Virus record (IMG/VR): IMGVR_UViG_3300031836_000398
From: an uncultured virus (IMG/VR IMGVR_UViG_3300031836_000398)
Taxonomy: Duplodnaviria > Heunggongvirae > Uroviricota > Caudoviricetes > Herelleviridae
Length of the DNA: 56,783 nucleotides
Strand: one strand, 5' to 3'
Part shown: positions 2,038 to 56,783 of the stretch, piece after piece
Numbering within the stretch: the first letter of the stretch is position 1
Layout: each line of letters begins with the position of its first letter
Program-made: the position numbers and the translations under genes
Notes under the pieces: generated by a model
Databases searched by the model: none
What the model was told of the DNA's origin: nothing
Seen by the model: only the letters and a program-made list of their open reading frames with translations

Positions 2038-2090
2038 GCATCATCGCCGTCTTCATAAGCCAAACCCGAAACAAGCAGAAGAGGAAACAC

Positions 2091-13918: not shown

Positions 13919-13959
13919 AGAACCCCGAGAGGCATTTCGCTTCTCGGGGTTCTTTTTTT
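13919..13959 (+). terminator. Intrinsic terminator (near-identical copy at 17552-17584)
   Basis: AGAACCCCGAGAGGC-ATTTC-GCTTCTCGGGGTTCT followed by a T run. Confidence 0.8.
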
Positions 13960-16042: not shown

Positions 16043-16375
16043 ATGAGACGAGTCATTCTGGAAAGCCCGTTCGCGCCGACCGAGACAGCGACAGTCGCCG
16101 ACAACGAGCTCTATGCTCGCCGAGCAGTGCGGGATGCGCTCTTGCGAGGCGAAGCCCCGCTGGCGTCACACCTGCTGTACACGCAGCCTGGTGTGCTGGT
16201 GGACACCGTGCCCGAAGAACGCAGACAGGGTATCGACGCCGGACATGCCTGGTTGGCATTTGCCGACGCGCTGGTCGTCTACGGCGACCTGGGTTTTTCT
16301 GCTGGCATGACGACAGGCATCGAGCGGGCACAGATGACGGGAATCCCCGTCGAGGTTCGCTTCTTGGATGCGTAG
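16043..16375 (+). CDS. Small nucleoside deoxyribosyltransferase-like (DUF4406-type) protein
   Basis: VILESPFA...EAPLASHLLY...ADALVVY...SAGM..GIERA...GIPV pattern. Confidence 0.65.
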   Translation: MRRVILESPFAPTETATVADNELYARRAVRDALLRGEAPLASHLLYTQPGVLVDTVPEERRQGIDAGHAWLAFADALVVYGDLGFSAGMTTGIERAQMTGIPVEVRFLDA

Positions 16376-17550: not shown

Positions 17551-17590
17551 AAACCCCGAGAAGCATTTCGCTTCACGGGGTTCTCTTTTC
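17551..17590. terminator. Intrinsic terminator hairpin
   Basis: AACCCCGAGAAGC-ATTTC-GCTTCACGGGGTT immediately after the stop of the 58-aa ORF. Confidence 0.7.
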
Positions 17591-41183: not shown

Positions 41184-43481
41184 ATGGTTATGAAGTTAGG
41201 GAAGGGAGCCGCGAATTTGCTCGACAATAAAGCAAAGGATGGGTCTGAGCAAGGCGCTGATGGCGCCGCGCTGACGGCAACGCCCGTGGTCAAGAAGCGC
41301 AAGGCGGATGAACTGTTGTCCAGCGTGGTCGGGGAATCGACAGTTGGTTCAGCCATTGGGCTGATGCGCAAGAACGCTGCATTTATCCTGCCCGACGAAA
41401 AGTCCTGGGTAGTTCTTGGTCTCCAGGTCAGCGACATCGGCGGCCTGAGCATGAAGCAGAAGAATGACGAAGCCAAAGGCTCGTTGATTCAGCTCATCAC
41501 GGCAGACCAGATCACCACGGTGACCACTGCCGACATGCTTTCGGCTGAGGTGCTGGGCATTATTCCCAACGAGGAATCGCTGTCTCGGATGGACGAGTTC
41601 GGCCTTCTGCGTAACGCACCATATCTTTGGATCGTTGTGCGACAAAAGAGCGATGGTTCGCTGGACGCAGGCCCCGTTTCGGACGCCGGCCTTCGTGCGA
41701 GTTTCGAGGATGTCGTAGCTGTCTCATCGGGGGAGCTGAGCCTTGCGAGTCTTCTTCCTGATGTCTGGACTGCCGCAGGTGGTTCCGATGAAGATCTCAC
41801 CACGACGGCTGTTAGTGAAGTTTCCGCTGACGAGCCGGAGCCTGAAGCAGTGAGTTCGTCACGTTCTGACGAACCCCTGGCGGCTCCCGCTGACGGTTTC
41901 GTCGACGACGACAGCCCCTTTGGGGATGAGCCCGTCGATTACGACGCCTTGGATTCCGCTGATGACGAGCTGCCAATCGAAGATGCTCTGGCTGACGAAG
42001 CCGAAGATGCAGACGACGCTGAAGACGAAGACGAAGCTGATGCGAATGATGACGACGACGCTGACTTCGGTGATCCCGAACCTGCCGCGGAGTCTGAAAC
42101 CGTTGAAGAGGCCGTGGCGAGCGCTCCTGCGACGCCGGTCGATGACCGTATCGTCAATGAGGCCGAGGTTCAGGATTCGATTGCCCGTCGCTTCTTGACG
42201 AGTGATCTTGATCTCGAAGTAGACCTGGGACAGTTCGAGTCGAACTTCATTGTTCGCACGAACCCGATCGCCTTCGATTTCGGTGTCACTCTGACTGAGA
42301 CGGGAACTGATTCGGACTGGCTTAGCCAGCAGGTGAAGCAGTTGTCGTTGCAGGCGAACGTGCAGCTGGAGCAACTGCACGATAACCACAAGGCATCATT
42401 GCGTGAGTACTACGTGTCATTGATGTCGGCACACATCGAGCAGGTTATTACCGATGTGTCTCTCGATAACGAAGGCTCCTACTACTACCGCTTGTCTAGG
42501 GCGGCGAAGGCCGACTTCACGCAGCGTCAACGACAGAGCCCCGAAGAGGTCTCCGCACTGCGCCGAGAGCTCAACGAGCGCTATGACGGCGAAGCCGATG
42601 CTCGTGCTGCCCAGGCTGCAGAGGCAGCCCGGTTGCGCTACAAGGAGCAGAATCGTGCGCGACACGAACGTGACCTCGCGGAGATCGCTCTTGAGAACGA
42701 ACGTGCTTCTGAGTCGATGTTTGCCGGCGCACGTCAGGTCATCCTGGAAACCCGTCGCAAGGATGCCCTGAGTCGGATCGACCTGGGCGCCACGAAGATC
42801 TTCGATGTTCTGGTGGAGCGTCAGGTTGAGAACCGCGCAGCCGAAGAGACGATGCTCAAGGAGTGGAGCGATCGGATGGCTCTGCTCATCGACGAGAACC
42901 GCAAGAGTGACCTTGCGCGAAGTGAAGCTTTGGCTGAACAGCTTTCGCGCATCAATCAAGTCGAGGAACTCAAGGCGGAACACTCGGCGCGGGTAGCCGA
43001 GTTGCGTCAAGAGCAGGTTGCTCGGGTTTCCGATATGTCGGCAGACCTCGAGCGTGCTCGTGAAGAGGCGTTTGCGGAGCTGACTACTCAAAGCACCGCG
43101 TGGAACAACTCGCTTGCCGAAGAACGTCAGAAGACGGACGCCGCCCAGGGTCAAATCAAGACTCTGCTGGCTGAGTTCGATCAACTGGGCCCGACGTTGG
43201 AGAGCCACTACAAGAACCAGATCGAATCGGCGCGTGTAGAGGCTGATTCGTACTCGCTGGCTCTTGAGCGTTCAGGGAAGGTGCAGTCGCGTGCGAACAA
43301 GACGATGGTCGGTTTGATCGTTGTTCTGGCACTGGCATCCCTGGCTGTGGGCTTCATCGCTGGCTTCATCGTTGTTGGGCAGTTCGGTGTCACCCTCGGC
43401 GATGTGTTCGCGCCAGGCGTCTCCGAGCAGACCAGCGAGAGCACCCCGCTTGGTGATGTTGCGGAGCTGCCGGGGCAGTAA
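41184..43481 (+). CDS. Coiled-coil protein with acidic linker and C-terminal TM
   Basis: Asp/Glu-rich tract, long heptad region, hydrophobic helix near the C-terminus. Confidence 0.7.
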   Translation: MVMKLGKGAANLLDNKAKDGSEQGADGAALTATPVVKKRKADELLSSVVGESTVGSAIGLMRKNAAFILPDEKSWVVLGLQVSDIGGLSMKQKNDEAKGSLIQLITADQITTVTTADMLSAEVLGIIPNEESLSRMDEFGLLRNAPYLWIVVRQKSDGSLDAGPVSDAGLRASFEDVVAVSSGELSLASLLPDVWTAAGGSDEDLTTTAVSEVSADEPEPEAVSSSRSDEPLAAPADGFVDDDSPFGDEPVDYDALDSADDELPIEDALADEAEDADDAEDEDEADANDDDDADFGDPEPAAESETVEEAVASAPATPVDDRIVNEAEVQDSIARRFLTSDLDLEVDLGQFESNFIVRTNPIAFDFGVTLTETGTDSDWLSQQVKQLSLQANVQLEQLHDNHKASLREYYVSLMSAHIEQVITDVSLDNEGSYYYRLSRAAKADFTQRQRQSPEEVSALRRELNERYDGEADARAAQAAEAARLRYKEQNRARHERDLAEIALENERASESMFAGARQVILETRRKDALSRIDLGATKIFDVLVERQVENRAAEETMLKEWSDRMALLIDENRKSDLARSEALAEQLSRINQVEELKAEHSARVAELRQEQVARVSDMSADLERAREEAFAELTTQSTAWNNSLAEERQKTDAAQGQIKTLLAEFDQLGPTLESHYKNQIESARVEADSYSLALERSGKVQSRANKTMVGLIVVLALASLAVGFIAGFIVVGQFGVTLGDVFAPGVSEQTSESTPLGDVAELPGQ

Positions 43482-43610: not shown

Positions 43611-46600
43611 ATGACGAATAGCAACGGTCAGGGCCCCAAGCCCAAGACCAGCAACTGGGACAAGATTTCCTCGCGCGATCACAGCGAGACTCTTGCCAAC
43701 CGCGATGTCTATGAGGATCAACAGCTCGACCGATCTCGCATCCAGGGCTTGCAGTCAAAGGTCAGCCGCATCTGGCTAGCCGCTATCGCGGGCTCCCTGG
43801 TGTCTGGGCTGGCATGGTTTGCCTTCTCCCTTGTGGCGTTGGTGTTTGTCTGGGCTGGCCCGGCGCTGAACGGTCTGGGATCGACCGGCGGCGACGACGC
43901 TGTGGCGATACCGGACTATTACGAATCGGTGATCTTGACCCCGGGTGAAGCTCAGATGTTGGGGGTGGCGAATCCCGAAGGTGGCGTGATGAGCTGCTAC
44001 CTCGCGACAGACGCTTCCGGACAGACGGTGGGAACGACCTGCTACGAAGAGGTCGAGGACGTTCCTGTTCCCCAGTGGTACATCGACCTGCAAGCAGCCG
44101 CGGGAGTGGATGTAACGCAGGAGAGCGCTCCGGTCGAAGAGGTCGCGTTTAGCGGTCTGCTCACGGAGCAGATGCTCACCTTCTCGCTCTGGAAGTTGCT
44201 ATTCGCGCTCGTGGCTGGAATGCTGACATACGGGATGCTCTACCCGTTCCTCATGCGCAACCTCGAAGCTCAGAACCTGATGAACGACACCACGGACATC
44301 AACCAGTACAACAACGACCAGCACATCGCTTTGCCTGAAGAGATTCAGCGTAAGTTCGACTGGTTCCCCGATGTTGGCGCGCATAGCTCGGTGCAGCTGA
44401 GTTCGATGATCAGTCACATGATGATCACAAACAAGGGACTCAAGACGATTCCCGTCTCGCAGCGCGCGGCGAAAGACGTGCTCGACGAAGACGGTGAGAT
44501 CGAGTACCTCAAGGGTGAGATTCTCCACGACGCGGCCGGTGAGCCGATCGTGAAGCCAATGGCCATGATTGACGAGAAGTTCGGTCACGCTCTCTTCGAG
44601 GCGTCCGGGCTTCCTGAGCCGTTGCGTAAGTTCTACGACGTCAACAAGATCCCGTACAATCCGGGCAACGAGAGCATGGACAAGCTCAAGGGCTACGACA
44701 CTGTCGGAGACCTCATCAACGAGGATTGGACGTTCCCTGACTACGAGGTTCAGCGACCAGGCGGCGCGTACATCGTTGACACCGCACCGGTGAACACGAT
44801 GGTGCTGGCGATGACCCGAGCCGGTAAGGGCCAGACGTACATTGAGCCTGTCATCGACATGTGGATGCGCGAGAAGCGCCCCAACAACATGGTCATCAAC
44901 GACCCAAAGGGCGAGCTGCTCGTCAAGAACTACGTTCGAGCAAGCCTGCGCGGTTTTCAGGTTGTTCAGTTCAACCTGATCAACGCGATGAAGACAGACA
45001 TTTACAACCCGTTGGGAATGGCTGCTGACGCTGCTCGTGAGGGTGACGCCACCAAGTGCGCCATCTATGTCGAGAACATCGCTGACGTGTTCTTCCCGAC
45101 CGATGGTGGAGAAGATCCTGTCTGGCCGAACGCAGCAAACAACGCGTTCAAGCGTGCTGCTTACGGTCTGATTGATTTCTACCTAGAAGAAGAACGCGAG
45201 CTTCGTTCTCGTGCTGCTCGGATCAACATGGATCCTCAGCAGCTCGAGGTTGAGCTGGACACAATGTGGGGCAAGGTCACGCTGTACAACTGCTACCAGC
45301 TGTTCGTGCAGCTCACGTCCAAGAAGATGAAGAACCCGGAGAAAGAGCTTGAGGCGCGCTTCAAGGCCGGAGTCTTCGAGAACATGGAGAACGGTCAAGA
45401 GGTTTACAACGCCGAGTACGAAGTTGCGGCACGCAAGGCGATCCTTTGGGAAGACCAGGCTGACCGCGACATGCTCACGCTCTACTTCAACGCCACCGAG
45501 GTGTTGCCGCAGAACACGATGCGTACGTTGATTGGCAACGCCAACAACGCGCTGAAGGCAATGGCCGGCGCCGAAAAGATGCTCGCTTCCGTATACGGAA
45601 TTGCGATCACAGCGATGAGCTTCTTCACCGACCCGACGATCTCGACGTTGACCTCTGGCGCTCCGAGCCAGAACACCGACCTTGGTGGTTTGAGCTTCCC
45701 GCGACGCATGGGTGTGCGCTTTGGTATGAACTACCTCAAGCGCGACAACCTCATTGGTGCTCAGGTCAAGTGGGATGCGTTCGACGACGAGCTGTTCACG
45801 CAGCCTCTCGGTGACGAGTTCGGCCACGAAGACATTGTGTCTCGTGAAGGCTGGGCTCGGTACTACTTCGAGGGCAAGTTCCCGACCGACAACGGCTACC
45901 TACGCCTTCGCTTGGTGAACCCTCAGACGCAGATGCTGATTCGCACGATGTACTTCCATTTCAAGAAGGATTACCAGACTTCGCTCAATGGACGTCGCTA
46001 CATCACTGACCCAGTAACGGGCCGGAAGATCGTCAAGAACGGCATCCTCCGTGAGCTGATTCCAGAGTTCGGTGTGGGCGACGAAGCCAACCAGATCGTG
46101 CGGATTGAGCGGGGTCACACTATGTACCCCCAGACACGACTCGATTTGTCCTTGCACACGCCAGAGATGGTGATGGACAAGGCGCAGGCGATCGTTTCAA
46201 CGATGGTGCGTTATTCAGAGTCACCCAAGATGGTGTTCCTGGTGACGCCGCCTCACCTGATGAAGTACGCGAAGCTGATCCTGATTTTGGTGAAGCAGCT
46301 TGTCGACTTGAACTTCGACAAGTCGTACATGACCAAGAGCAACCAGAAGCCGCTCTACAAGACGCGCTTCATGCTCGATGAGCTCGGTAACTTGCAGTCC
46401 GAGGGTCACGGTATCTCCGGATTCGAGACGATGCTCTCTATCGGTCTCGGGCAAGAGCAGCAGTTCACGTTGATCTTGCAGACGCTGCAGCAGCTGCGAG
46501 ACGTCTATGGGGAATCGGTGGACAAGATCGTGCAGGGCAACGCGCAGCCGCTCGACGCCAAGATCGCGACGCCTACTGGTTGGAAGCCGATGGGCGAGAT

Positions 46601-46775
46601 AGTCACCGGCGATGAAGTGCTCACGCCGGCTGGTGGAACCACAGAGGTCACGGGTGTCTTTCCTCGAGGAAAGCGTCCGGTGTACCGAGTCACGCGACGT
46701 GATGGCTCGACCACGGAGGTCTGCAACGAGCACCTCTGGGAAGTAGTAGTGAAGCCGAAGGGCAGCCGTCGATGA
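43611..46775 (+). CDS. virD4: VirD4/TraG coupling protein N-extein (aa 1-977) fused to split-intein N-fragment
   Basis: Two TM segments; Walker A-like AMTRAGKGQT; NDPKGEL; Walker B FMLDELGNL; ILQTLQQLRDVYG; ends with AQPLDAKIATPTGW...CNEHLWEV. Confidence 0.9.
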   Translation: MTNSNGQGPKPKTSNWDKISSRDHSETLANRDVYEDQQLDRSRIQGLQSKVSRIWLAAIAGSLVSGLAWFAFSLVALVFVWAGPALNGLGSTGGDDAVAIPDYYESVILTPGEAQMLGVANPEGGVMSCYLATDASGQTVGTTCYEEVEDVPVPQWYIDLQAAAGVDVTQESAPVEEVAFSGLLTEQMLTFSLWKLLFALVAGMLTYGMLYPFLMRNLEAQNLMNDTTDINQYNNDQHIALPEEIQRKFDWFPDVGAHSSVQLSSMISHMMITNKGLKTIPVSQRAAKDVLDEDGEIEYLKGEILHDAAGEPIVKPMAMIDEKFGHALFEASGLPEPLRKFYDVNKIPYNPGNESMDKLKGYDTVGDLINEDWTFPDYEVQRPGGAYIVDTAPVNTMVLAMTRAGKGQTYIEPVIDMWMREKRPNNMVINDPKGELLVKNYVRASLRGFQVVQFNLINAMKTDIYNPLGMAADAAREGDATKCAIYVENIADVFFPTDGGEDPVWPNAANNAFKRAAYGLIDFYLEEERELRSRAARINMDPQQLEVELDTMWGKVTLYNCYQLFVQLTSKKMKNPEKELEARFKAGVFENMENGQEVYNAEYEVAARKAILWEDQADRDMLTLYFNATEVLPQNTMRTLIGNANNALKAMAGAEKMLASVYGIAITAMSFFTDPTISTLTSGAPSQNTDLGGLSFPRRMGVRFGMNYLKRDNLIGAQVKWDAFDDELFTQPLGDEFGHEDIVSREGWARYYFEGKFPTDNGYLRLRLVNPQTQMLIRTMYFHFKKDYQTSLNGRRYITDPVTGRKIVKNGILRELIPEFGVGDEANQIVRIERGHTMYPQTRLDLSLHTPEMVMDKAQAIVSTMVRYSESPKMVFLVTPPHLMKYAKLILILVKQLVDLNFDKSYMTKSNQKPLYKTRFMLDELGNLQSEGHGISGFETMLSIGLGQEQQFTLILQTLQQLRDVYGESVDKIVQGNAQPLDAKIATPTGWKPMGEIVTGDEVLTPAGGTTEVTGVFPRGKRPVYRVTRRDGSTTEVCNEHLWEVVVKPKGSRR
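46542..46772 (+). other. Split intein N-fragment (77 aa, Ala1, blocks A and B)
   Basis: AQPLDAKIATPTGWKPMGEIVTGDEVL...VYRV...DG...CNEHLW is a Hint-domain N-terminus. Confidence 0.9.
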
Positions 46776-47182
46776 GCCCCACCGTTCCCTCCGATCAGCG
46801 CTCGATGCCGAGCGTGGATCTTATCGTCGCCCACTGGAAGTCTGTCGGGGTTGACTGGGTGCAGCATCACGGCTGGGGTGAGCCATTCTGCTTTGGTTGC
46901 GGTTGGTTGCCCCCGGTCACGGATCGCCGGGCGATGAGTTGGCGCTGGGCCGGGCCCTGGCTCGATCGAGCGCACCTACAAGACCATTGGGTCGAAGGGG
47001 ATGATTCGGTTGAAAACTTGGTGATGCTGTGCCATTTATGCCACGCACAGATGCCGCAGGACTTCGAGGATCGCGCGGAGGCGTTGCTCTGGGTTCAACA
47101 GGTCGAGCGGTGCTCGGGGTGGTGGCAGTTGTACACCGACTTGATCTGCGAGGCGAGAGGTATGAGGGGCTCCGAGCAGTAG
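46772..47182 (+). CDS. HNH endonuclease-like protein
   Basis: CFGC...LDRAHL...NLVMLCHLCH; ATGA overlap with the virD4-N stop. Confidence 0.8.
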   Translation: MSPTVPSDQRSMPSVDLIVAHWKSVGVDWVQHHGWGEPFCFGCGWLPPVTDRRAMSWRWAGPWLDRAHLQDHWVEGDDSVENLVMLCHLCHAQMPQDFEDRAEALLWVQQVERCSGWWQLYTDLICEARGMRGSEQ

Positions 47183-47287
47183 GCACACTCTGCTCAAGCT
47201 GAAAAATGCGTACTTACTCTTGGAAATTGAGTCCTTACAGCAAGCAGCTGCGCAAGTGACCAAACCAGTAGTTAGGGGGTGAACATT

Positions 47288-47419
47288 ATGGATATTGAGA
47301 TGGCTGATTCTTCAGGACAGCTCTACGACAATTCGAGGCGGGGTTTGTGTAGAGTGCATGGAATTCCGCTGGACGACGGTTTCTGTGACGCCTGTCATAT
47401 CGAGAACAACGACGATTGA
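47288..47419 (+). CDS. 43-aa zinc-finger microprotein (absent from the ORF track)
   Basis: GGGGGTG RBS; MDIEMADSSGQLYDNSRRGLCRVHGIPLDDGFCDACHIENNDD (C-x2-H-x8-C-x2-C); ends just before a terminator. Confidence 0.5.
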   Translation: MDIEMADSSGQLYDNSRRGLCRVHGIPLDDGFCDACHIENNDD

Positions 47420-47422
47420 AGT

Positions 47423-47460
47423 AAAAGAAGCCCCTGCGCATGATGCGCAGGGGCTTCTTT
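47423..47460. terminator. Bidirectional intrinsic terminator inside the split virD4 locus
   Basis: AAAGAAGCCCCTGCGCAT-G-ATGCGCAGGGGCTTCTTT. Confidence 0.85.
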
Positions 47461-47465
47461 GTCGC

Positions 47466-49445
47466 TTACACAGGCTTCACCCAGCGCGTCTTCCCAGAGT
47501 CCCAGATTCGGTAGAGCTTGTTGGCGGCGGCCGCTTCGCGTTCGGTCCAACCTTCTTGGTAGACCAGAGCATCGTCGGTGCGAAATCGCTTCAGCTGGAA
47601 GGCTTCCTTGGGCTGGCGATTGCCACGCAGGGCACCACCTGCATACCAGTACGACGGACGGATCGTTCCTGCTGAGGTGAAGCCAGAAGCAGCGTAGAGC
47701 TGCCCGTCCGACCATTCATCGGCAGACAATGTCACCCAACTTTCAAGGGCTTCACCTTGACTTATGAGGGTGCGTTCGGCGTAGGCCAGCAGCCGCGAAA
47801 AGCCTCCCGGGACCAGACCGCGCGTTGCGTAGCGTTGGATCTCCCACTGACCGGCGGACCGGCGAGCTCGAGCGTTGTGGCGAGGGCTGCGTAGACCGAG
47901 GACGGCACGAGGGAGGCCCTGTTGATCTACCAGAGCGAACGACTGCGAAAGCGTCACTTCGCCCTGAACATGGTTATGGCGGAAGAACTCGGCTGAGTCT
48001 GGACCGGAGAGCTCCACCAATGTGAGTGAGCGTGCGCCAACACGTTGAACCAACGTCGGATCAGAGTCAACTTTGAGACCCGCGGCGATCAGAGCTGCGT
48101 GCAGGTTCTCGGGTCGCTTGAGCTTGTGTGCAAAGGTTCGCACGAGAACGGCGCGCTTTATTGGGTCAGCCCAGTCGTCTTCCCACGCGGTGATAAGCGA
48201 GAGACCGGCCTCATGAACGGCTCTTAGCTTGGCGACGTGGCTCTTCTGGTCACGACCACCAGCTTCAGAGTGCCAGAAAACGCCGTTGAACTCGAAGCCG
48301 ATTGTCCCAGCGATGACGTCGACTTCGACGCGCTTACCCTGTGCGTCGGTGATCTTGGCTCGGTGTTGAGCCCGCGGTTCGAGAGCCAGCAGCGCCGCGA
48401 GCATTTCTTGCTCGCCGTAGGACGAACCGACGGGGCAGCACGTAGGGCACCCATTGCCAGCAACTCGGGCATACACTGCCGCGGGCCAAGTGTGGTTGTC
48501 TTTGCAGCGCCATTCAGTAACGACCATAGAGCCATGGCTGAGGGTGGTTGCCAACGAAGGGTCAGCCAGCTCGGCCGAGAGGTCGGGGTGGGTGGTAGCG
48601 AGATCGTTGACGCCGACAAGGATCTGAACGCCGGCGTGTACGGGGCAGCTCTGACCGCGAAGTTTGTGGCGAACGCTCATCGCGTACGTGTGAGCGCTGG
48701 AGCACTTGTCGCAACGCCATTCAACGACACGACCGGAGCCGAGGCTCAGCGTCGCTGCGTGATCGCGATCCACTGCCTCATCCAGCACAGGAGAGTTGAT
48801 GTCGCCGAGCGTTTGGTGCCGCCGCGCTGGCCGGTCTGTGCGACCGATGCAGTGAGGGCAACCAGTGATCTTGGAGCTACCAAATCCTGATCGGTTGCGC
48901 ACGGGAGCCGTCCAGGTGTGAGTGGGCTCAACCGAGCATCGCCAGTGAAGTTTCTTCCCTGAACCCGCACCTAGACCCTTGGCCTCGTCGGGGTCGATTA
49001 GCTCGAGTACAAGATTCGGGTGCGTGGTCGCAAGATCGCTGATACCGCTAACCGACATTCGACCGGAGCAGTATGGGCAACCAGATCCGAGTCGCACCCT
49101 GGATACAACGGATGCCTCCCAACGATGCGACTGCGTTGTGGTGCAGACCCAAAGGAACTTCTTGTGTGACCCGCCGTGAGTTATCAGAGCGTCAGCGTGG
49201 TCAACAAGCTGGGTGGCGAGATCTGGCTCGGTCGTTGCGAGGTCGTTGATGCCCGGAATGATTATCTTGTTTGTGCAGACGGAACACCCCGAACCCCGCT
49301 TTCGCGTATTTGGGCTAGATGTCCAGATGTGGCGCGAATCCTTGACGCAGCGCCATTGAACGCGGGTGTTTGATCCAGCAGACAATGTTGCGTTGGTCGG
49401 GTCGACCAGCTGGGCCGCAAGTTTGGGTGTCGTCATCTTTTGCAT
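47466..49445 (-). CDS. Free-standing homing-endonuclease-like protein (zinc-ribbon repeats, Vsr-like nuclease, GNAT/Mom-like C-terminal domain)
   Basis: Five W-x-C...H...C-x-x-[CH] repeats (DUF4379-like); EVD...FEFNGVFWHS...WEDDW; WEIQRY...GGFSRLL...GQLYAASGF...RIWDSG. Confidence 0.8.
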   Translation of the reverse strand: MQKMTTPKLAAQLVDPTNATLSAGSNTRVQWRCVKDSRHIWTSSPNTRKRGSGCSVCTNKIIIPGINDLATTEPDLATQLVDHADALITHGGSHKKFLWVCTTTQSHRWEASVVSRVRLGSGCPYCSGRMSVSGISDLATTHPNLVLELIDPDEAKGLGAGSGKKLHWRCSVEPTHTWTAPVRNRSGFGSSKITGCPHCIGRTDRPARRHQTLGDINSPVLDEAVDRDHAATLSLGSGRVVEWRCDKCSSAHTYAMSVRHKLRGQSCPVHAGVQILVGVNDLATTHPDLSAELADPSLATTLSHGSMVVTEWRCKDNHTWPAAVYARVAGNGCPTCCPVGSSYGEQEMLAALLALEPRAQHRAKITDAQGKRVEVDVIAGTIGFEFNGVFWHSEAGGRDQKSHVAKLRAVHEAGLSLITAWEDDWADPIKRAVLVRTFAHKLKRPENLHAALIAAGLKVDSDPTLVQRVGARSLTLVELSGPDSAEFFRHNHVQGEVTLSQSFALVDQQGLPRAVLGLRSPRHNARARRSAGQWEIQRYATRGLVPGGFSRLLAYAERTLISQGEALESWVTLSADEWSDGQLYAASGFTSAGTIRPSYWYAGGALRGNRQPKEAFQLKRFRTDDALVYQEGWTEREAAAANKLYRIWDSGKTRWVKPV

Positions 49446-49499
49446 AACACTAGTTTACACTGATATTACATCCCGTATCAAGCTCATTTGGTGGTTATT

Positions 49500-49515
49500 T
49501 GCTGATAAAGGAGGA
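49500..49515. promoter_or_regulatory. 16-bp box (virD4-C / divergent endonuclease gene)
   Basis: TGCTGATAAAGGAGGA. Confidence 0.55.
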
Positions 49516-49569
49516 TAAACGTATAGACTGGTGGTTGGATAAACAATCGAGAGAGAAGAGATATTGCAT

Positions 49570-49857
49570 ATGTCTGATTTGCTCATGGTGCCAGCCGGGG
49601 AAAGACGCGTTGTCACAACGGACGAACTCAGGGCGATGCTTGCTCGCGGGGAACAGGTGTTCCTGCCTGAGGCGACAGTCACGGACGAGAGCATCTTGTC
49701 AGAATACGCCGCTGCCGATCGTGCGCGTTTGGACGTAGACGCAGCTGACAATGACATCGTCAGCATCGAGTACGTGCGTGACGACGAGGTTCAGTGCATC
49801 GAGGTTGCTGACGACCGTCACCTGTACATCACGGATGACTTCATTCCGACACACAAC
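49570..49857 (+). other. Split intein C-fragment (about 96 aa, blocks F and G, ends His-Asn; Thr+1 at 49858)
   Basis: Cys at position F4 (VQCIEV); PTHN/T terminus. Confidence 0.9.
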
Positions 49858-51003
49858 ACGAGCAACATTGTGTTCCTCAAGAGCACTGATGACTCGATGA
49901 TTGACACGCTGCAGAAGATGTCCGGTGTTCGGCACCGCGCGTACACCGACTCTAAGACGGTGACCAAGGACATGGAGCGTTTGTTCCTCCAGACCGAGGG
50001 CAAGGTGTCGTACACGATGGCTGTGAAGGAAGAACCCGTCATCAGCTATAACGACATGGCCTTCATCTCAGAGCGCAACAGCATGGTCTTCAGTGCCGGT
50101 AACTCACCGGTGTGGAACCGCAACGAGACGATCCTGCCGATGAGCTGGCGCTTGTTCAAGGACACGATCGTTCATGCGGGTCACGAGTACTCGCTGCAGA
50201 CGATCCCCACGCTGTCATCAGCGTTGGACTTCGATGTGCGGCTCAATCAGCCTGACTTCACCAAGATGCTCGCCAAGCGCATGGCGCAGGCAGAGCGTGC
50301 CGCTGAGGCCAAGGAGCTGTACCAGACGGCGTACAACTACTCGGATTACGACGTCTCGCGACTGGATCCCGACCTGTACTCAGACGAGGTCATGGGTTTG
50401 ATCGAGTCGATGGCGTGGGAGGCAATGGGTATTGACCCTGACGACATGAAGGACGGAGATCACGAGGCTCTTGAGGCTCAGTATGTGATGAACGACGAGG
50501 ACTACGAAGTAAACACCGAGCAGCTCGAGGAAACAGCCCGACGACAGGAGACGAGGGATCGGATGGGACACAAGATCTATGCGGGAGCTACGGTCAGCCG
50601 CGAAATGCTGGTCAACCCCGACGGCAGTGCATTGAAGCACACGCTCGATGCTGAGATTGTGGCAGCGTACAAGGTAGCCAGGCCGCACCTGGAGCGCGAC
50701 ATGGAGTACTTCCGCCTGGGCGCCGATGGTTCGCTGCTCAGCGGTGACGGCACCGAGGCGTACATCTCGAAGCTTGATGAGTCCGACGCCCTGGCCGACG
50801 CTCAGGTAGCTGCCACGGACGCCAACACGCGAGTGTTTGCGGAAGACAACGTGACTGAGAATGCTCATGGTTTGTCGACGTTCGAGGTACACGGGGCGTT
50901 CTACCGGTTCCTGGCGTCGCTGGACACCTGGCAGGGTCTGGCGCAGGGCGAATTTGACCGCGAGATGGTCAAACAGATGCACGTAAAGGACGCCACGATT
51001 TGA
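49570..51003 (+). CDS. virD4: Split-intein C-fragment fused to VirD4 C-extein
   Basis: IVSIEYV...VQCIEV...HLYITDDFIPTHN then TSNIVFLKSTDDSMIDTLQKMSG, which continues the VirD4 C-terminal motif. Confidence 0.88.
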   Translation: MSDLLMVPAGERRVVTTDELRAMLARGEQVFLPEATVTDESILSEYAAADRARLDVDAADNDIVSIEYVRDDEVQCIEVADDRHLYITDDFIPTHNTSNIVFLKSTDDSMIDTLQKMSGVRHRAYTDSKTVTKDMERLFLQTEGKVSYTMAVKEEPVISYNDMAFISERNSMVFSAGNSPVWNRNETILPMSWRLFKDTIVHAGHEYSLQTIPTLSSALDFDVRLNQPDFTKMLAKRMAQAERAAEAKELYQTAYNYSDYDVSRLDPDLYSDEVMGLIESMAWEAMGIDPDDMKDGDHEALEAQYVMNDEDYEVNTEQLEETARRQETRDRMGHKIYAGATVSREMLVNPDGSALKHTLDAEIVAAYKVARPHLERDMEYFRLGADGSLLSGDGTEAYISKLDESDALADAQVAATDANTRVFAEDNVTENAHGLSTFEVHGAFYRFLASLDTWQGLAQGEFDREMVKQMHVKDATI

Positions 51004-51043: not shown

Positions 51044-51084
51044 AAAAAGAGCCACTTCAACATGCCCGTTGGAGTGGCTCTTTT
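51044..51084 (+). terminator. Intrinsic terminator after virD4-C
   Basis: AAAAGAGCCACTTCAAC...GTTGGAGTGGCTCTTTT. Confidence 0.8.
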
Positions 51085-51161
51085 GCGTTCTAGGTGCGAT
51101 ACTTGATATGTATTCACAAAGCCGAAGCGATTCTTAATCGCTCATATATCAAGGGAAAAGT

Positions 51162-54100
51162 ATGAAAAGTAGCTCAACTGGTTTGCGAAGTTATCTATAC
51201 GAGTACATGTTCTTTCGGACTATCGAGCGAACGCAGCAGAACCTCAGTGAAACGATCCTTATCTCGGAGGCTCGTCGCCTTCGTGATCTGGTGGGCGAGA
51301 AGCTCACCAACCAGGGGTTGTCGATGACCGATAGCGGTCTGAAGGTCACACCGGTACTGCGAGCGATCGAAGAGACCATGCGAGCTGAGGTTCCGGGTTA
51401 CCGGGATCTGTTCTCACAGGCCAAAGACGACGGTGTTCCGTTCTCGGTTGATTCGTTGGGTTACGCCCAACTCAGCCGCGAGTTCATGCGCACGGCAGGT
51501 CTGTCCACGGAACCCTCGGGTGCTGCTGGGCCACGCCTGCCGATTAGCCCCTACGATCCTCGCTGGGCTGTGCGAAGCACGGTCAAGCAGGCTGGTTCCA
51601 ACTTGCTCAACGTTCCCGATCACTTGATCGAAGAAGTTGTGGCTGGAGAGGTCGGTGATCTGGAAAGTTCAGATAGCGAAGCTCTCTATCTCTACGGTTC
51701 CGACCAGGACGACAAGAACGTTGAATTCGGTCGGGCGATGAGCGCCGACGACATGAGCGGCATGGCTGAGCTCATGGGGTTGATGAGCACCCGCGAATAC
51801 AACGATGTTCGACAGTGGATGATCGACGGTGGCCTCGACGGCAACGGTCAGATCGACCACCGCCGTTACATGGGCCCCGACGCCCTCGCGCGTTCGGTTG
51901 CCATCCTCCGCGAACTCGGTGAACAGGGCACGCCCTACACCGTTACTCGCGACCTCAACCCTGGCCAGATCCGGGCCAACATTGAGGGTACAAAGATCGG
52001 CGTTCGCCTGAGCGATACTCGCGACAATGACGACTTTGTCGGGCGGGTCTACGACAACGGGGTAGTCACTCGGTACACCACGAACCGCAAGGTCGCCGGA
52101 ACCGACCGCGTCATGGGCTATACGCCCACCACGGCAGAGAGCGTTGACCTTCTGCGCATGGCACAGGGTCTTCCTGTGCAGCGTTCAGACGGCAAGGGCA
52201 TCATCGGAGCGGTAAACACTCGCTCCGAGCTGGTGTGGGACAAGGCCGTAGGCGACAACATCTACACCGAGATCCAAGACAGCTACCACAGCGCCGGTTC
52301 GGCGATGTTCGTAGTTGGCAATCCGCCAACCGAAGATTTCAACGAGGGTCAGACGTCGCAGGTATTCGTGCGTCGCGACGGCACTCAGCGCAGCGTCAGC
52401 TCGAAGTTCTTTGTTGACCAAGACTCGGCAGCGGCGTACCTCACGTACGGCGTAGAGACTGCTCGCGAGAACTTCATGGATGCCTTGCGTGTCGAGGCGC
52501 TGATTGCGGCTGCTCAAGAGCACGCCGTGGAGGCAGCCGAGGGGGAGTGGTTCCCTGAGTTCGACGGAGACCCCGAAGTTGCGGCTATTCAGCGCAGCTA
52601 CTGGGATGTGTTGCGTGGTGCGCAAGACAACCTTCTTCGTCCCGGCGCAACCGAGGATGCTTACCGCGACAAGGTAGACATCATCGGTGAACTCAGCGTT
52701 GACAACGAGCTGGGTGAAAGCGTCCACGAGTACATCGTTGGCGACATTGCCTACGTCGGTAGCCCCGAAGATCAGATCCGTGCTCACTCCGCTGATGCAC
52801 TGGATTACGTCATCGGTCAGTACGAGCAGCACGAGGTTCCCGACGCCGAGGGGCACTGGCAGTCACAGCGTTTCGACCCGGTACGCCTGGCGAAGTTCAT
52901 GGACAGCGAATACGGCACCTGGCGCAATAACGATGACATCGTGGCTGCGCTTCGGGCCAGTGGTATTCCTGCTGAGGAACTCATGGGTGACAGCTTCTAC
53001 ACGAACACCATCAAGGATCGCCTCATCAAGTTCGACGCGGCTTCGGCTCAGTCGATCGGCGAGATTGAAGACCCGTTCGTGCAGGGTATGGCTGAAACCG
53101 TGCGGGATGCGATTGAACGCAACGGAGCTGCCGTCAATGACGTTGCCGTTGATGCCAACGGCATCGTGTCGTGGAGTGCCGAACGCCAAAGTGGTTTCAA
53201 GGGTAAGACCGAGACGGTCACTGGCCAGATCGGTCAGATCTTCACCCGCGGCGAGTACGGCGAGATCGTGACGAAGTTCGCCGGCGGCGACAACTACCTG
53301 TTCGTTCCGGGCTATGAAGCCGGTATCGCTGTCCAGAAGGTTGGCGAGAACAAGACGGTCGAAGAACGCAGCAAGTTGCGCGGCTACGATCAGATTCTGC
53401 GTGATCAGATCCAGTACCAGGTGTCGTCAGAGATCCTCAGCCAGCGCACCGATCTTGGTGAGCCGACGAGCCTCAACAGCGTGTACCGCCGTCTCTACGA
53501 CGTACGTCACGATGTGGACTTCATCGAGCGCAGCGCAGAAGAAGGTCTCACTCCTGAGTGGCGTGACGCGATTCTCAGCACTGAGGGGCGCCGTGTGCGT
53601 TACCCCAACGCGGTGCGTGATGGTTCGACCATCAACGCCGAGTACCAGGCTGATAAGGGTCGCGGATTGTCGGCAAGCGATCCCGCTAACGACAACACGT
53701 TGGATCCGTGGATTCTCACGGGTCAGCGCAACATGGCGATCATGGGCGAAGAGAGCGATGGCTACTTCGACCCAATGGTGACGTCAGGTTCGATCAACCA
53801 GGGCGTTACGCGCTACTTGGTTGAGGGTGCAGTTGTTTCCGCTGACGGCACGATCGTTCCTGGCGACAAGGACGACCGCACACCGTTGATGAAGCACCCT
53901 GACACCGCTTCGATGCGCTACAACCCCTTCGATCGTCAGCAGATGACCGCAAGCAACCTCATGCGGGCTGCAGCGGTAACTGAGCCGGTTGCAACCGCGA
54001 TGATGACCTTCGGTGGTTGGACGGCAGACGACCCAATGGTGGTCAGCCGTGACTTCGCTCAGAAGCACCAGATTCGTGGCGCCGAGGGCACCATGCGCGA

Positions 54101-56783
54101 TCTGGTTGTGGGCGACAAGCTCAGCGACCTTCACGGCAACAAGGGAGTCATCTCACTGGTTGTCGATCGCGAGATGGATCTCGCGGATGCTCGTGAGCTG
54201 GGTCTCGAGAAAGAGGTCGCGTGGTTCAAGAAGAACAACATCGACGTCATCATGAGCCCGTTCTCGGCTGTATCTCGCTTCAACGGAGGTACTGCTCGTG
54301 AACTCATGGAAAGCGACGCACAGCCGCTTCACCACCCGTTCGTTGATGCGAACGGTGAGACTCGGGAGCCTCTGCATGGTGCTCAGGGTGAGATGCGATT
54401 CGTCGTGACTCACATGGCGGTTGACTCGAAGACGAAGGTCTACGACGACGCTGCTCTGGCTGAGGGACGCGGCCGCAAGGCATCGTCACAGCTGGCGTGG
54501 GCACTTGGGTCGCAGAACTGCGAGAAGGTCATGGCAGAGTGCTATGGCCCCAACAGCACCGCGGTGAGCAACTTCCGCGAGACGTTGATCGCAATGGGCT
54601 TGGACATGGAAGCTGACGGCACTTTGCGCGTCGGATTCGACGACATGGACGAAGCTTCGGAGCGCCGTTTGTTCCCGATGCCTGAGCTGATCCGTACGGA
54701 ACAGCGCAAGTCCATCAACGGTCGCCCACCGGCTCGCCCCGGTTTGAACTTGCGGCTGATGAAGCGTGAGTTCGGAGCGCAGATCGGCAACAAGGGTGGA
54801 GACCTCGAGCTGCCATTCTCGCTGAAGATGCCGTCGGGCTTGCCGACACCTCAGGCAACTGATGCGTCATGGAAGCTGCCGGTGCTCAGTTCGCACCTGC
54901 GCTCGGGTCAAGATCTCGATGATGGTTCCAGCACGGTTCACGATTACACGAACCACTACTTGGCCATCCACGAGCAGTCGTTGAAGTTCCGCTTTGCCCA
55001 GGAGGAATTGAAGGACGAGGCGTTGAGTGCTGAACAGCACAAGCGCCACACTCAGACCCTCACGGAAGCTCCGCGTCTGGCACAGTCTGCCTACGACCGG
55101 ATCACCGAGAGCTTGAAGAGTCGTCGTTTCTCTGGAAAGAGCAACATCTTCAAGGAAGGTCTGATGGCTTCCCGCTTGCCTCACTCGGCTACCGCCGTGT
55201 GGACAAGCGACCCGCGTCTGGACATCGACCAGGTTGCAATGGGCCCGGCTATGGCCGAGGCACTGGGTTTCAAGGAGAACGACCACGCGCTGATCTGGCG
55301 TGACCCGGTTCTGCGTGATGGTGGCGTGCGCTATATGCGCGTTGCGATCGACTCGCGACTGACCGGTGTTGCCATCAACCCGGTAATGGATGCTTGCTTC
55401 GACGGCGACTTCGACGGCGATGCTGTTGCTGTTGTTCGCCTGACCAGTGACGCAGCCAAGCTCGAAGCGATGCAGAAGCTGAGCGTTGAGTCGAACCTGT
55501 TGGACTTGGGCAGCACGCTCGAAGACGGTTCGTACTCGCTGTCAATGCAGGACTCGCTCGACACGAAGGTGTCGCAGCACGTTGACCCTGAGCTGACGGA
55601 ACGCTTCGAGGCGCTACGGATGCGTGCCAACGACGCGAAGTTCGACCTCGACGAAGGCGAGATCGACCAGGCTGCCGCGTGGGACGCGAACAGCGAGATT
55701 CTGGGTGAGCTGAGCGACTACTACCGCGATGCTCTGTCAGGCCAGTTCGGTGATGCCGCGCTGAGCTTTGACGATGTGCCGTCGCACTTGCGGTCGGTCA
55801 TGAGCGCGTGTGTCGAGACCGGCGCTAAGGGTTCAGCCAAGAAGGTGCGCGACTACGCGCGCTACCTTGGCGCTGACCCGGACACGTTTGCTGATCTTGG
55901 TGAGAGCCAGGCTACGCAGGACGACCACGAGGGTGTCATGTACGCCACCGCGATCAAGTCGTTCGGTACTGGTGTCGCCGGCATGTTCTCGCAGCGCGGT
56001 GTGAAGGCACTTCGCAACGAAGAACTGAAGGCCGTACTGGAACTCACCTACCCGGTGACGCAGTCGATTCTGCAGTCAAAGCACGACCCCGCTGAAGCTC
56101 GTCAGAAGTACGAGATGTTGATGGGGCCTGCTCGGGCGCACTGGAAGGGTCGCAAGCTCGACGCCACCGTTGGTGACAACGGTGCTCGTGTCTGGAAGGT
56201 TGCCACCGATGGCAAGGGCAAGGAGATCCAAGCTGACACGGAGACGTGGAAGCGCCAGTTCCAGGAGCTGTACACCGCTGCAGACGGACTCAATGTTCGC
56301 GTCAATGACGAGAACATCGACAAGGTCGCCGCAGCGCTGTCCAAGGACGGCATGGTCATCGACATCGAGGACAAGACCTCGCACGCAGTCGATGCTCCCA
56401 AGCTCGGTTCGACGATGGATCGCCTGGCTTATGGCGGAACGTTTGACGACGTTCTGGCAGCGGCTGCTGAGCGAGAGAACGTCTTCTCGGGAGTGCAGAA
56501 CAGTGGTTTTGCACCTCACGTCATCAAGAAGAACCAGCAGGCCATTGCTGAGTACGACGAGCAGGTCACGGCAGGTTTCGATGCCGAGCTACCTGAGCTG
56601 AGCCCTTTGGTGAAGCGCGACGTTCTGGCTGACCACAACGAACTGAGCCGCGTCAGCGGTGGTGCTGAGGCACCAAGTCCGTTCGTGACAGCCATAGCAG
56701 CACGGCCACGTACGCGGGTTATCCCCGCGCACTCGCCGTCAGTCGTCGATGAGAAAAGCGAGGTCGACGCGCTCTCGCTTTAG
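51162..56783 (+). CDS. Single-polypeptide two-barrel (beta/beta'-like) RNA polymerase
   Basis: Beta-like: RQQMTASNLMRA, GWTADDPMVVS, VGDKLSDLHGNKGVIS, IDVIMSPFSAVSRFNGG, GRKASSQLAWAL. Beta'-like: SGKSNIFKEGLMASR, LIWRDPVLR, AINPVMDACFDGDFDGDAVAV, TGAKGS, YPVTQSILQSKH. Confidence 0.9.
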   Translation: MKSSSTGLRSYLYEYMFFRTIERTQQNLSETILISEARRLRDLVGEKLTNQGLSMTDSGLKVTPVLRAIEETMRAEVPGYRDLFSQAKDDGVPFSVDSLGYAQLSREFMRTAGLSTEPSGAAGPRLPISPYDPRWAVRSTVKQAGSNLLNVPDHLIEEVVAGEVGDLESSDSEALYLYGSDQDDKNVEFGRAMSADDMSGMAELMGLMSTREYNDVRQWMIDGGLDGNGQIDHRRYMGPDALARSVAILRELGEQGTPYTVTRDLNPGQIRANIEGTKIGVRLSDTRDNDDFVGRVYDNGVVTRYTTNRKVAGTDRVMGYTPTTAESVDLLRMAQGLPVQRSDGKGIIGAVNTRSELVWDKAVGDNIYTEIQDSYHSAGSAMFVVGNPPTEDFNEGQTSQVFVRRDGTQRSVSSKFFVDQDSAAAYLTYGVETARENFMDALRVEALIAAAQEHAVEAAEGEWFPEFDGDPEVAAIQRSYWDVLRGAQDNLLRPGATEDAYRDKVDIIGELSVDNELGESVHEYIVGDIAYVGSPEDQIRAHSADALDYVIGQYEQHEVPDAEGHWQSQRFDPVRLAKFMDSEYGTWRNNDDIVAALRASGIPAEELMGDSFYTNTIKDRLIKFDAASAQSIGEIEDPFVQGMAETVRDAIERNGAAVNDVAVDANGIVSWSAERQSGFKGKTETVTGQIGQIFTRGEYGEIVTKFAGGDNYLFVPGYEAGIAVQKVGENKTVEERSKLRGYDQILRDQIQYQVSSEILSQRTDLGEPTSLNSVYRRLYDVRHDVDFIERSAEEGLTPEWRDAILSTEGRRVRYPNAVRDGSTINAEYQADKGRGLSASDPANDNTLDPWILTGQRNMAIMGEESDGYFDPMVTSGSINQGVTRYLVEGAVVSADGTIVPGDKDDRTPLMKHPDTASMRYNPFDRQQMTASNLMRAAAVTEPVATAMMTFGGWTADDPMVVSRDFAQKHQIRGAEGTMRDLVVGDKLSDLHGNKGVISLVVDREMDLADARELGLEKEVAWFKKNNIDVIMSPFSAVSRFNGGTARELMESDAQPLHHPFVDANGETREPLHGAQGEMRFVVTHMAVDSKTKVYDDAALAEGRGRKASSQLAWALGSQNCEKVMAECYGPNSTAVSNFRETLIAMGLDMEADGTLRVGFDDMDEASERRLFPMPELIRTEQRKSINGRPPARPGLNLRLMKREFGAQIGNKGGDLELPFSLKMPSGLPTPQATDASWKLPVLSSHLRSGQDLDDGSSTVHDYTNHYLAIHEQSLKFRFAQEELKDEALSAEQHKRHTQTLTEAPRLAQSAYDRITESLKSRRFSGKSNIFKEGLMASRLPHSATAVWTSDPRLDIDQVAMGPAMAEALGFKENDHALIWRDPVLRDGGVRYMRVAIDSRLTGVAINPVMDACFDGDFDGDAVAVVRLTSDAAKLEAMQKLSVESNLLDLGSTLEDGSYSLSMQDSLDTKVSQHVDPELTERFEALRMRANDAKFDLDEGEIDQAAAWDANSEILGELSDYYRDALSGQFGDAALSFDDVPSHLRSVMSACVETGAKGSAKKVRDYARYLGADPDTFADLGESQATQDDHEGVMYATAIKSFGTGVAGMFSQRGVKALRNEELKAVLELTYPVTQSILQSKHDPAEARQKYEMLMGPARAHWKGRKLDATVGDNGARVWKVATDGKGKEIQADTETWKRQFQELYTAADGLNVRVNDENIDKVAAALSKDGMVIDIEDKTSHAVDAPKLGSTMDRLAYGGTFDDVLAAAAERENVFSGVQNSGFAPHVIKKNQQAIAEYDEQVTAGFDAELPELSPLVKRDVLADHNELSRVSGGAEAPSPFVTAIAARPRTRVIPAHSPSVVDEKSEVDALSL

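Follow-up and report, generated by a model that had tools for sequence, protein, structure and literature searches.

The window analysed here is the whole 56,783-nt stretch of the uncultured-virus record IMGVR_UViG_3300031836_000398, which holds a transfer gene set of Gram-positive type, including a single-strand-binding protein (SSB), a tyrosine recombinase, a topoisomerase IA and a lysozyme/CHAP protein. Its last gene, at 51162-56783 on the + strand, encodes a protein of 1873 amino acids (aa), hereafter called the polymerase, which we identified as a single-chain β-then-β′ two-barrel RNA polymerase (RNAP) of the NCgl1702-like family from its translation, its Pfam matches and its relatives of about 1850 aa. 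The open reading frame (ORF) is intact, with an ATG at 51162 and a stop that is the final codon of the window (56781-56783), and the base composition of the window is 56-60% G+C. All coordinates given below for parts of the polymerase and for the transfer genes are on the + strand.

A first-pass annotation made from the letters alone had described nine motifs in cellular order in this protein, and each of them was found once in the polymerase, where it had been placed: GWTADDPMVVS (residues 952-962), VGDKLSDLHGNKGVIS (residues 983-998, nt 54108-54155), IDVIMSPFSAVSRFNGG (residues 1027-1043), GRKASSQLAWAL (residues 1104-1115), LIWRDPVLR (residues 1377-1385), DFDGD (residues 1416-1420, nt 55407-55421), TGAKGS (residues 1553-1558), TAIKSFGTG (residues 1596-1604) and YPVTQSILQSKH (residues 1630-1641). 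Pfam RNA_pol_Rpb2_6 matches residues 977-1064 with an E value of 3.4e-6 (26.9 bits, cut-off 23.4), and RNA_pol_Rpb1_2 matches residues 1371-1438 with an E value of 6.8e-5, its 23.6 bits being slightly below the cut-off of 25.3. When a profile from 38 relatives was run against the PDB, bacterial β′ chains were recovered at E 4.1e-17 over profile positions 1198-1412. The best PDB match of the single sequence was gp96 of P23-45 (E 9.9e-6), around the DFDGD barrel, and PHROGs gave a weak β-subunit match within the core. The NCBIfam rpoB and rpoC equivalog models scored only 11-17 bits on the polymerase against cut-offs of 800-5400 (best 17.4 and 16.4 against 819 and 896), and since these scores are so low, the protein is no ordinary β or β′ subunit.

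The fold of the core was predicted with AlphaFold2. Model 1, covering residues 850-1873 and numbered from residue 850, was built from 38 sequences and had a mean predicted local distance difference test score (pLDDT) of 88.4 and a predicted template modelling score of 0.86. VIA-align comparison with 48,161 chains matched it to largest RNAP subunits with Z of 15.7-12.3 and to second-largest subunits with Z of 12.8-12.2. Residues 850-1131 (53709-54554) resemble the C-terminal half of β/Rpb2 and hold the first double-psi β-barrel (DPBB), as also indicated by the Rpb2_6 match. Model residues 1-279 aligned to residues 562-1333 of the bacterial β chain 6j9e_C (Z 12.8, root-mean-square deviation (rmsd) 3.1, 254 residues aligned), and over model residues 1-282 the alignments to second-largest subunits also included A135 of Pol I (Z 12.3). 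About 500 residues of the bacterial β span 562-1333 have no counterpart in the polymerase. Only 28 residues separate D957 from K986, a spacing that leaves no room for a flap (SBHM) insert, which is therefore missing. Residues 637-849 (53070-53708) form a domain that is weakly like the N-terminal lobe of β/Rpb2 in the VIA-align comparison: residues 637-816/858 recur as β/Rpb2 N-terminal lobes with Z of 5.5-3.5 and 120-178 residues aligned. The top partner was 6j9e_C, residues 37-565 (Z 5.5, 152 aligned), and further partners were AR9 7s00_c, vaccinia 6rfl_B, phiKZ 7ogp_E, the B1/B2 domains of Mycobacterium tuberculosis β 4kbj_A, Pol I 4c2m_B and African swine fever virus (ASFV) 8q3b_B, so that the partners span bacteria, plastids, AR9, vaccinia, phiKZ, Pol I and ASFV.

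Residues 1151-1789 (54612-56528) make up a β′/Rpb1-like module with clamp core, second barrel, funnel, bridge helix and trigger loop, according to VIA-align, Foldseek and the profile. Model residues 302-940 aligned to residues 13-1705 of the Pol I A190 chain 7ob9_A (Z 15.7, 509 aligned), to 7eu0_A, 2pmz_A, 9mu7_A and 6rfl_A (Pol IV, archaeal A′, Pol II and vaccinia; Z 15.5-15.2) and to the M. tuberculosis β′ chain 6edt_D (Z 12.3). The best 50 Foldseek matches in the PDB were all bacterial β′ chains (E 5.6e-13 to 3.5e-11); their template modelling scores were low (0.23-0.37), as is expected for a fusion protein. The β′ barrel (model residues 492-578) superposed on designed and natural isolated DPBB domains with Z of 11-12 and rmsd of 1.6-1.9, and the model also aligned to the phage enzymes of phiKZ (Z 12.9) and AR9 (Z 12.2) and to P23-45 gp96 (Z 11.4 and 10.9). 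A 52-residue helix at residues 1586-1637 (model helix 737-788) resembles the bridge helix, and the TQSxLQxKH motif at residues 1630-1641 resembles the trigger loop (together 55917-56084). In these models the β module is reduced, supplying one barrel with two lysines and an aspartate, and the β′ module is fairly complete. The pair of double-psi barrels on which the first-pass annotation had staked its assignment was thus found in the AlphaFold models, and the two DPBB domains are predicted to form one active site, as in the two-barrel superfamily. Sequence, profile and predicted fold agree, and they support the earlier identification of a single-chain β-then-β′ two-barrel RNAP on a conjugative element.

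Ruprich-Robert and Thuriaux (PMC2919709) listed eight residues that are invariant across all two-barrel polymerases, namely D, K and K in the β barrel and R, P and DxDxD in the β′ barrel. All eight have counterparts in the polymerase, assigned by motif: D957, K986 and K994 in the β barrel, R1380 and P1382, and D1416, D1418 and D1420 in the β′ barrel. In an alignment of 61 relatives that are 33-53% identical to the polymerase, each of them was invariant (61/61). K986 and K994 are the catalytic lysines of the GDK...HGNKG motif at 54108-54155, and the three aspartates are the metal-binding triad of DFDGD. K1556 and G1557 of TGAKG and the trigger-loop K1640 were invariant as well, and the T, Q, L, Q and H of the trigger-loop motif were each at least 90% conserved. 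The active site, comprising the two barrels, bridge helix and trigger loop, is predicted to be intact. It has to be considered whether the protein is a polymerase relic, catalytically dead or structural, that is kept as a scaffold of the transfer machine, since the literature searched yielded no biochemical activity for the family. We regard this as very improbable, because a relic would drift, whereas in relatives of as little as 33% identity the eight catalytic residues, like the motifs of trigger loop and bridge helix, show either no variation or a conservation of at least 90%. Selection is also seen in the 553 clusters at 50% identity in which the architecture is maintained. The polymerase is very probably an active RNAP that belongs to the transfer module, and it should polymerise nucleoside triphosphates on DNA.

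NCgl1702 of Corynebacterium glutamicum was described as carrying about 40 conserved residues across the two barrels, together with switch 2 and the funnel, and was then an orphan without relatives (PMC2919709). Its family has been in print since 2003, credited to Iyer, Koonin and Aravind in PMC2919709 and in the available part of PMC7824862. We compared the polymerase by eye with the printed NCgl1702 rows (six rows covering five regions, Supplementary file 1 of PMC2919709). Near WRDP 16 of 22 residues were identical, and near DFDGD 15 of 23. The stretches in common were the switch-2 run, WRDPV.RDGGVRY.RV...DGDFDGD, ETGAKGS and GDKLSD.HGNK...SRFNGGTARE. Since the printed rows match far beyond the universal residues, we place the polymerase in the NCgl1702-like family, a link that the first-pass annotation had drawn and that these long family-specific stretches bear out. 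The two proteins share sequence kinship, a single chain with β before β′, a long unrelated N-terminal part, the lack of a flap (SBHM) (for NCgl1702, as stated in the available part of PMC7824862) and a mobile-element setting. They differ in length, with 2169 residues for NCgl1702 and 1873 for the polymerase, and in contrast to the orphan of PMC2919709 the family found here is large. An exhaustive HMMER search with residues 850-1873 against 50%-identity cluster representatives returned 553 clusters at E ≤ 1e-3 and 377 at E ≤ 1e-30; in nearly all of the full-length matches the core was preceded by 800-1500 other residues.

A word-indexed search gave 426 matches among 8000 scored candidates. Among the 120 matches listed, lengths were 1389-2327 aa and identities 47-100%, most entries were called hypothetical, and the organisms were Arthrobacter, Microbacterium, Plantibacter, Nocardiopsis, Actinomadura, Streptomyces and others. 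The closest named relatives in that set, at 71% identity, come from Arthrobacter and a Micrococcaceae bacterium, and for this reason the host probably belongs to that family. When each species was represented by a single genome, 110 out of 531 pattern matches proved to encode a relative, and 78 loci were retained: 39 from Streptomyces, 13 from Arthrobacter/Pseudarthrobacter, 24 from other actinobacteria, and one each from a Clostridia and a Muribaculaceae metagenome-assembled genome (MAG). The last two, on MAG contigs (L069, 42% identity; L080, 36% identity), are relatives of the full-length type and reflect either spread outside Actinobacteria or a binning error. The family is sporadic: a search of 400 further genomes, drawn evenly from the same class, gave no match at E ≤ 1e-20. 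On plasmids, 13 of 72,556 records matched the polymerase, with full-length relatives in Streptomyces, Gordonia and Rhodococcus, and remote matches of 24-28% identity were seen on five Staphylococcus and five Lactococcus plasmids. The Lactococcus cremoris plasmid pJM4A (L082, 8920-16068) encodes a 2382-aa hypothetical protein with a remote polymerase-like region, 24% identical to residues 858-1266 of the query; a CHAP-domain gene and a gene for a Y-family polymerase are close by. Only one of 50,697 phage records matched the core (tblastn, E ≤ 1e-3), and this weak match was a jumbo-phage β subunit and not a YonO-like protein.

Several known enzymes can be set beside the polymerase. The cellular rpoB and rpoC products have the same module order, catalytic residues, bridge helix and trigger loop, and natural β::β′ fusions are known from Helicobacter and from Orf6 of the killer plasmid pGKL2 (PMC2919709). 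Unlike the cellular enzyme, the polymerase comes without α, ω and σ subunits, and it falls below the rpoB/rpoC equivalog scores. YonO of the Bacillus prophage SPbeta is also described as a single-chain two-barrel DNA-dependent RNAP of a mobile element (PMC5467207, in its available part) and is likewise given as flapless in the accessible text of PMC7824862; however, it is about 100 kDa, half the size of the polymerase, and is phage-borne, outside any conjugation block. P23-45 gp96 (PDB 8h2n/8h2m) is a tape-measure-fused virion RNAP with a large non-polymerase part that is delivered with the DNA, according to the portion of PMC10770324 available. The same text calls it flat and clampless, whereas our model can be aligned with largest subunits that do have a clamp, beginning at residue 13 of those chains. 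TraC1 of RP4, Sog of R64 and the N4 virion RNAP, as far as the sources available describe them, are large element-encoded proteins that synthesise RNA and are tied to DNA entry. We propose them as functional analogues, although their folds (Toprim and T7-like) are unrelated to that of the polymerase. By Pfam, the polymerase has no Toprim or AEP catalytic domain and is not a member of a conjugative-primase family.

The N-terminal region, residues 1-636 (51162-53069), is family-specific and confidently folded in an AlphaFold2 model of residues 1-858 (pLDDT 90.2), and it is kept together with the core in 79 of the 80 loci described below. It has no Pfam or NCBIfam match, Foldseek found nothing in the PDB at E ≤ 1e-3, the Atlas gave no usable match, and a wide VIA-align search gave Z ≤ 4 throughout. 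As the region was modelled only within residues 1-858, these negative searches do not establish a new fold. The earlier statement that the first 850 or so residues are unrecognised holds for residues 1-636 and fails for residues 637-849, which are weakly β/Rpb2-lobe-like as described above.

At the other end, residues 1826-1873 (56637-56780) form a tail predicted to be disordered (pLDDT < 50), with an acidic-then-hydrophobic tip (...SEVDALSL). The tail was surveyed in 253 non-redundant relatives of at least 1750 aa each, after one duplicate tail had been removed. The net charge of the last 15 residues was -2 or lower in 209 of them. Positions -8 to -4 were acidic in 30-42% (15% overall) and nearly without basic residues (2-7% against 13% overall), hydrophobic residues stood at -3 in 58% and at -1 in 53% (background 29.5%), glycine was frequent at -4 and -2, and a net positive stretch preceded the tip. 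In the loci, 73 of 75 polymerases carried the acidic tail, compared with 4 of 67 coupling proteins and none of 67 homologues of the 765-aa protein encoded upstream. The tip may resemble the acidic tips of single-strand-binding proteins. A secretion signal shared with the relaxase was considered and rejected, as relaxase C-termini from five genomes, the window, the Gordonia plasmid and the Staphylococcus aureus plasmid lack the polymerase-type tip.

The transfer genes between 19691 and 56783 (about 37 kb) all run in one direction. They include a MobL relaxase at 35577-37835 (Pfam MobL, E 7e-75), a Clp/Hsp100-type double AAA+ ATPase at 39308-41074 (ClpC, E 4.5e-53), which aligns to ClpA residues 188-657 and lacks the N and middle domains, and a 765-aa protein of no assigned family at 41184-43481. 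To our knowledge, an unfoldase inside a conjugation module is unusual. The VirD4-like coupling protein follows in two pieces, an N-terminal piece at 43611-46775 with an N-intein-like end (Pfam T4SS-DNA_transf and TraG-D_C; NCBIfam conju_CD1115, E 6e-35) and a C-terminal piece at 49564-51003 with a C-intein-like start (TIGR01443 intein_Cterm at residues 75-99).

To examine whether this arrangement is conserved, neighbours were searched by tblastn in 80 loci, consisting of the 78 loci above, Gordonia pGKT2 and an S. aureus plasmid. A coupling-protein homologue lay just upstream of the polymerase gene in 77 of them, and the three loci without a match were two 5.5-kb contigs and the Muribaculaceae MAG. 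Homologues of ORF 49564-51003 were likewise present in 77 of 80 loci, of the 765-aa protein in 74, and of the AAA+ ATPase in 60, many loci beginning inside the ATPase gene. The upstream order was constant, with the AAA+ ATPase, the 765-aa protein and the coupling protein followed by the polymerase. Each of the five host genomes tested had a single MobL gene, and in the two that were worked out its distance upstream of the polymerase gene was 12-14 kb; a C. glutamicum control genome matched too. The synteny with virD4 and mobL that had been suggested as a check is thus seen in both respects. Both Gordonia pGKT2 and the 55.5-kb S. aureus plasmid carry this gene set; on the latter, MobL, an AAA ATPase, an uncharacterised gene, a 1292-aa coupling protein and two further genes are accompanied by a 1787-aa polymerase homologue, a topoisomerase and a lysozyme. 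Downstream of the polymerase gene, six relatives showed no fixed neighbour, and three of the six had an HU-like gene about 2 kb away.

The first-pass annotation had put the gene directly behind the coupling protein, which is correct only if ORF 49564-51003 is read as the C-terminal piece of a split coupling protein. This ORF matches residues 996-1411 of the one-piece Gordonia coupling protein, by which the junction was mapped, and relatives encode the counterparts of both pieces in a single ORF of 1342-1427 codons. Some relatives have a coupling protein of 1712-1713 aa, with a LAGLIDADG intein after TraG-D_C in the same general region. In the window, the N piece continues with about 70 residues of N-intein-like text beyond the point where one-piece relatives go on, and the C piece opens with a stretch of about 98 residues that ends ...THN before TSN. 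A 136-aa ORF with a weak HNH-like match and an opposite-strand DUF4379 gene lie between the pieces. From these sequences, 43611-51003 possibly encodes a natural split intein. A complex prediction of coupling-protein residues 99-479 (from ORF 49564-51003) with polymerase residues 1-615 scored 0.00, which is evidence neither way. Two other genes stand near the start of the window. An actin-like (ALP_N) partition protein is encoded at 730-2037, and C. glutamicum, the home of NCgl1702, presumably has an element-borne actin-like protein as well. The 1332-aa protein at 2091-6089 has no Pfam match and a weak C-terminal LAETG-type sortase signal (E 0.0063), and may be a surface adhesin of the element.

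At the Pfam level, the 34 large and 50 small ORFs of the window contain no σ, α, Toprim-primase or PrimPol domain, in line with the earlier remark that no α or σ gene is visible. No primase is annotated on the complete S. aureus plasmid, and the five host genomes have no above-cut-off Toprim_2, Toprim_3 or Prim-Pol match near the element; in one of them (G004) a sub-threshold Prim-Pol match of 21.4 bits lies 23 kb downstream. Nor was a replication initiator recognised among the window ORFs, which would suit an enzyme that makes RNA for another use, such as primers for vegetative replication of a plasmid or excised element, R-loops at the origin of transfer (oriT), or QDE-1-like RNA-templated synthesis. 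QDE-1 itself aligns to the model with Z 13.0 over 370 residues. However, the largest-subunit matches are longer and stronger, the plasmid of the S. aureus relative carries its own RepA, and switch 2 and the funnel, which are absent from RNA-dependent enzymes, occur in NCgl1702 (PMC2919709). Such other uses of the RNA are improbable.

The region just before the polymerase gene was examined for expression signals. A terminator-like hairpin with a T-run (51045-51084) is followed by an AT-rich palindrome (51102-51153) immediately before the ribosome-binding site, and the DNA fold of 51045-51153 has an energy of -31.8 kcal/mol (z -6.0), a value reached by none of 200 shuffles. A box TA[TC][GA][AC]TCTAT[AG], which fits TAnnnT, lies behind the hairpin about 50 nt before the polymerase start codon in 14 relatives, and except for one chance match it is absent elsewhere in their 23-kb loci. 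A conserved leader ending in GGAGG accompanies the box (L014:7438, L041:7439, L064:7404 and 11 further loci). The upstream hairpin was discarded as a conserved structure, RNAalifold having returned 0 pairs for the 14 relatives, and the box is now read as a TAnnnT -10-like element. This suggests that the polymerase gene has its own host-type promoter. A repeat search of the whole window for an element-specific promoter turned up nothing beyond chance-like families and a single pair of terminator-like hairpins with T-runs (13921-13958 and 17552-17589, 92% identical). The pair brackets 3.6 kb holding an SF1 helicase, a DUF7768 ORF (16043-16372, E 9e-26) and an opposite-strand RES-domain ORF. Among 10 sequencing runs that match the window there was no RNA run; the matches were brine, seawater and sediment metagenome DNA, and the runs labelled brine metagenome contain every sampled word of the window.

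These signals bear on where the enzyme works. The polymerase probably starts RNA chains without a host σ factor, and it could plausibly do so in the donor, as a YonO-like transcriptase of the element. Host polymerase would then make the enzyme, and the enzyme would read the one-directional block (about 19.7-56.8 kb) or other element genes, uncoupling transfer from host σ factors and silencers. The β′ module with clamp, bridge helix and trigger loop, the single direction of the transfer genes, the position of the gene behind a terminator-like hairpin and, in relatives, a TAnnnT box almost exclusive to that site all agree with this. There is also a precedent, as YonO, the only characterised bacterial single-chain relative, is reported in the available part of PMC5467207 to transcribe, within the producing cell, late genes of the element that encodes it. 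However, no repeated promoter-like motif was seen in the window, the gene stands at the far end of the block that it would switch on, and nothing in this reading accounts for why it so strictly follows the coupling-protein gene, for the extra 636 aa or for the tail tip.

The polymerase probably serves conjugation itself, and we tentatively prefer that it acts on the transferred strand in the recipient, in priming, in making the first transcripts, or in both. Either the coupling protein would hand it over as a protein, or it would be an early product; in the recipient it would synthesise RNA primers for the complementary strand and/or the element's first transcripts, thereby doing the job of the Toprim/PrimPol primases on other conjugative elements. 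The reasons for this preference are the constant position of the gene next to that of the coupling protein, the absence of any primase, the conserved unfoldase, the N-terminal region, the tail tip, and precedents among primases and phages. According to the available portions of the sources, the primases TraC1 and Sog travel with the transferred DNA (PMC5512222) and phage virion RNAPs are injected (PMC5512222; PMC10770324). The conserved Clp/Hsp100-type unfoldase, the family-wide tail tip and the large N-terminal region may hint at a hand-over. In the boldest form of this proposal, which we consider unlikely, the polymerase is a cargo of the conjugation machine, the counterpart of the injected virion RNAPs of N4, crAss-like phages and P23-45. 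The Clp/Hsp100-type ATPase would unfold it, the coupling protein would pass it on, perhaps by way of the acidic-hydrophobic tail tip or the 636-residue N-terminal region, and after refolding in the recipient the polymerase would start RNA on the entering single strand without σ, replacing the Toprim/PrimPol primases.

Several points weigh against action in the recipient. Many Gram-positive elements depend on enzymes of the host, so that the missing primase is weak evidence. Since the loci are mostly of one element family, the 77 of 80 loci are not independent events. The relaxase, which is a sure transfer substrate, lacks the polymerase tip (five genomes and three other records). The clamp, bridge helix and trigger loop exceed what a primer-maker needs and are typical of processive transcription. 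The host-type TAnnnT box of the relatives and the hairpin and palindrome of the window fit ordinary expression in the donor equally well, and the YonO precedent, as far as the source goes (PMC5467207), is late-gene transcription in the producing cell. The literature searched yielded no experiment on any member of the NCgl1702 family. Both the processive-looking architecture and a promoter of the gene's own would agree with transcription in the donor no less well than with action in the recipient.

The enzyme type, the NCgl1702-like family and its mobile-element habitat are already in print. As far as the literature searched reaches, the size of the family, the fixed place after the coupling protein, the β-lobe remnant at residues 637-849 and the tail tip are new. 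We found in it no paper tying two-barrel polymerases to conjugation, although the original family descriptions may say more; the available text of PMC5512222 lists only N4-like RNAPs, from phages only, and does not mention a two-barrel enzyme on conjugative elements. The enzyme is widespread, uncharacterised, open to experiment and tied to a defined point of conjugation, but it will be no surprise to specialists.

Two-barrel RNAPs carry out all cellular transcription, and the single-chain forms are rare windows on what a minimal enzyme needs. The YonO and P23-45 enzymes each brought surprises, and the crAss-like phage enzyme reportedly did so as well. The family described here is at least as large as the YonO, crAss-like and P23-45 groups, and it spans Streptomyces to Staphylococcus plasmids. 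If its function were established, the conjugation toolbox would gain a new class of enzyme, and structural and applied work a 200-kDa σ-free polymerase.

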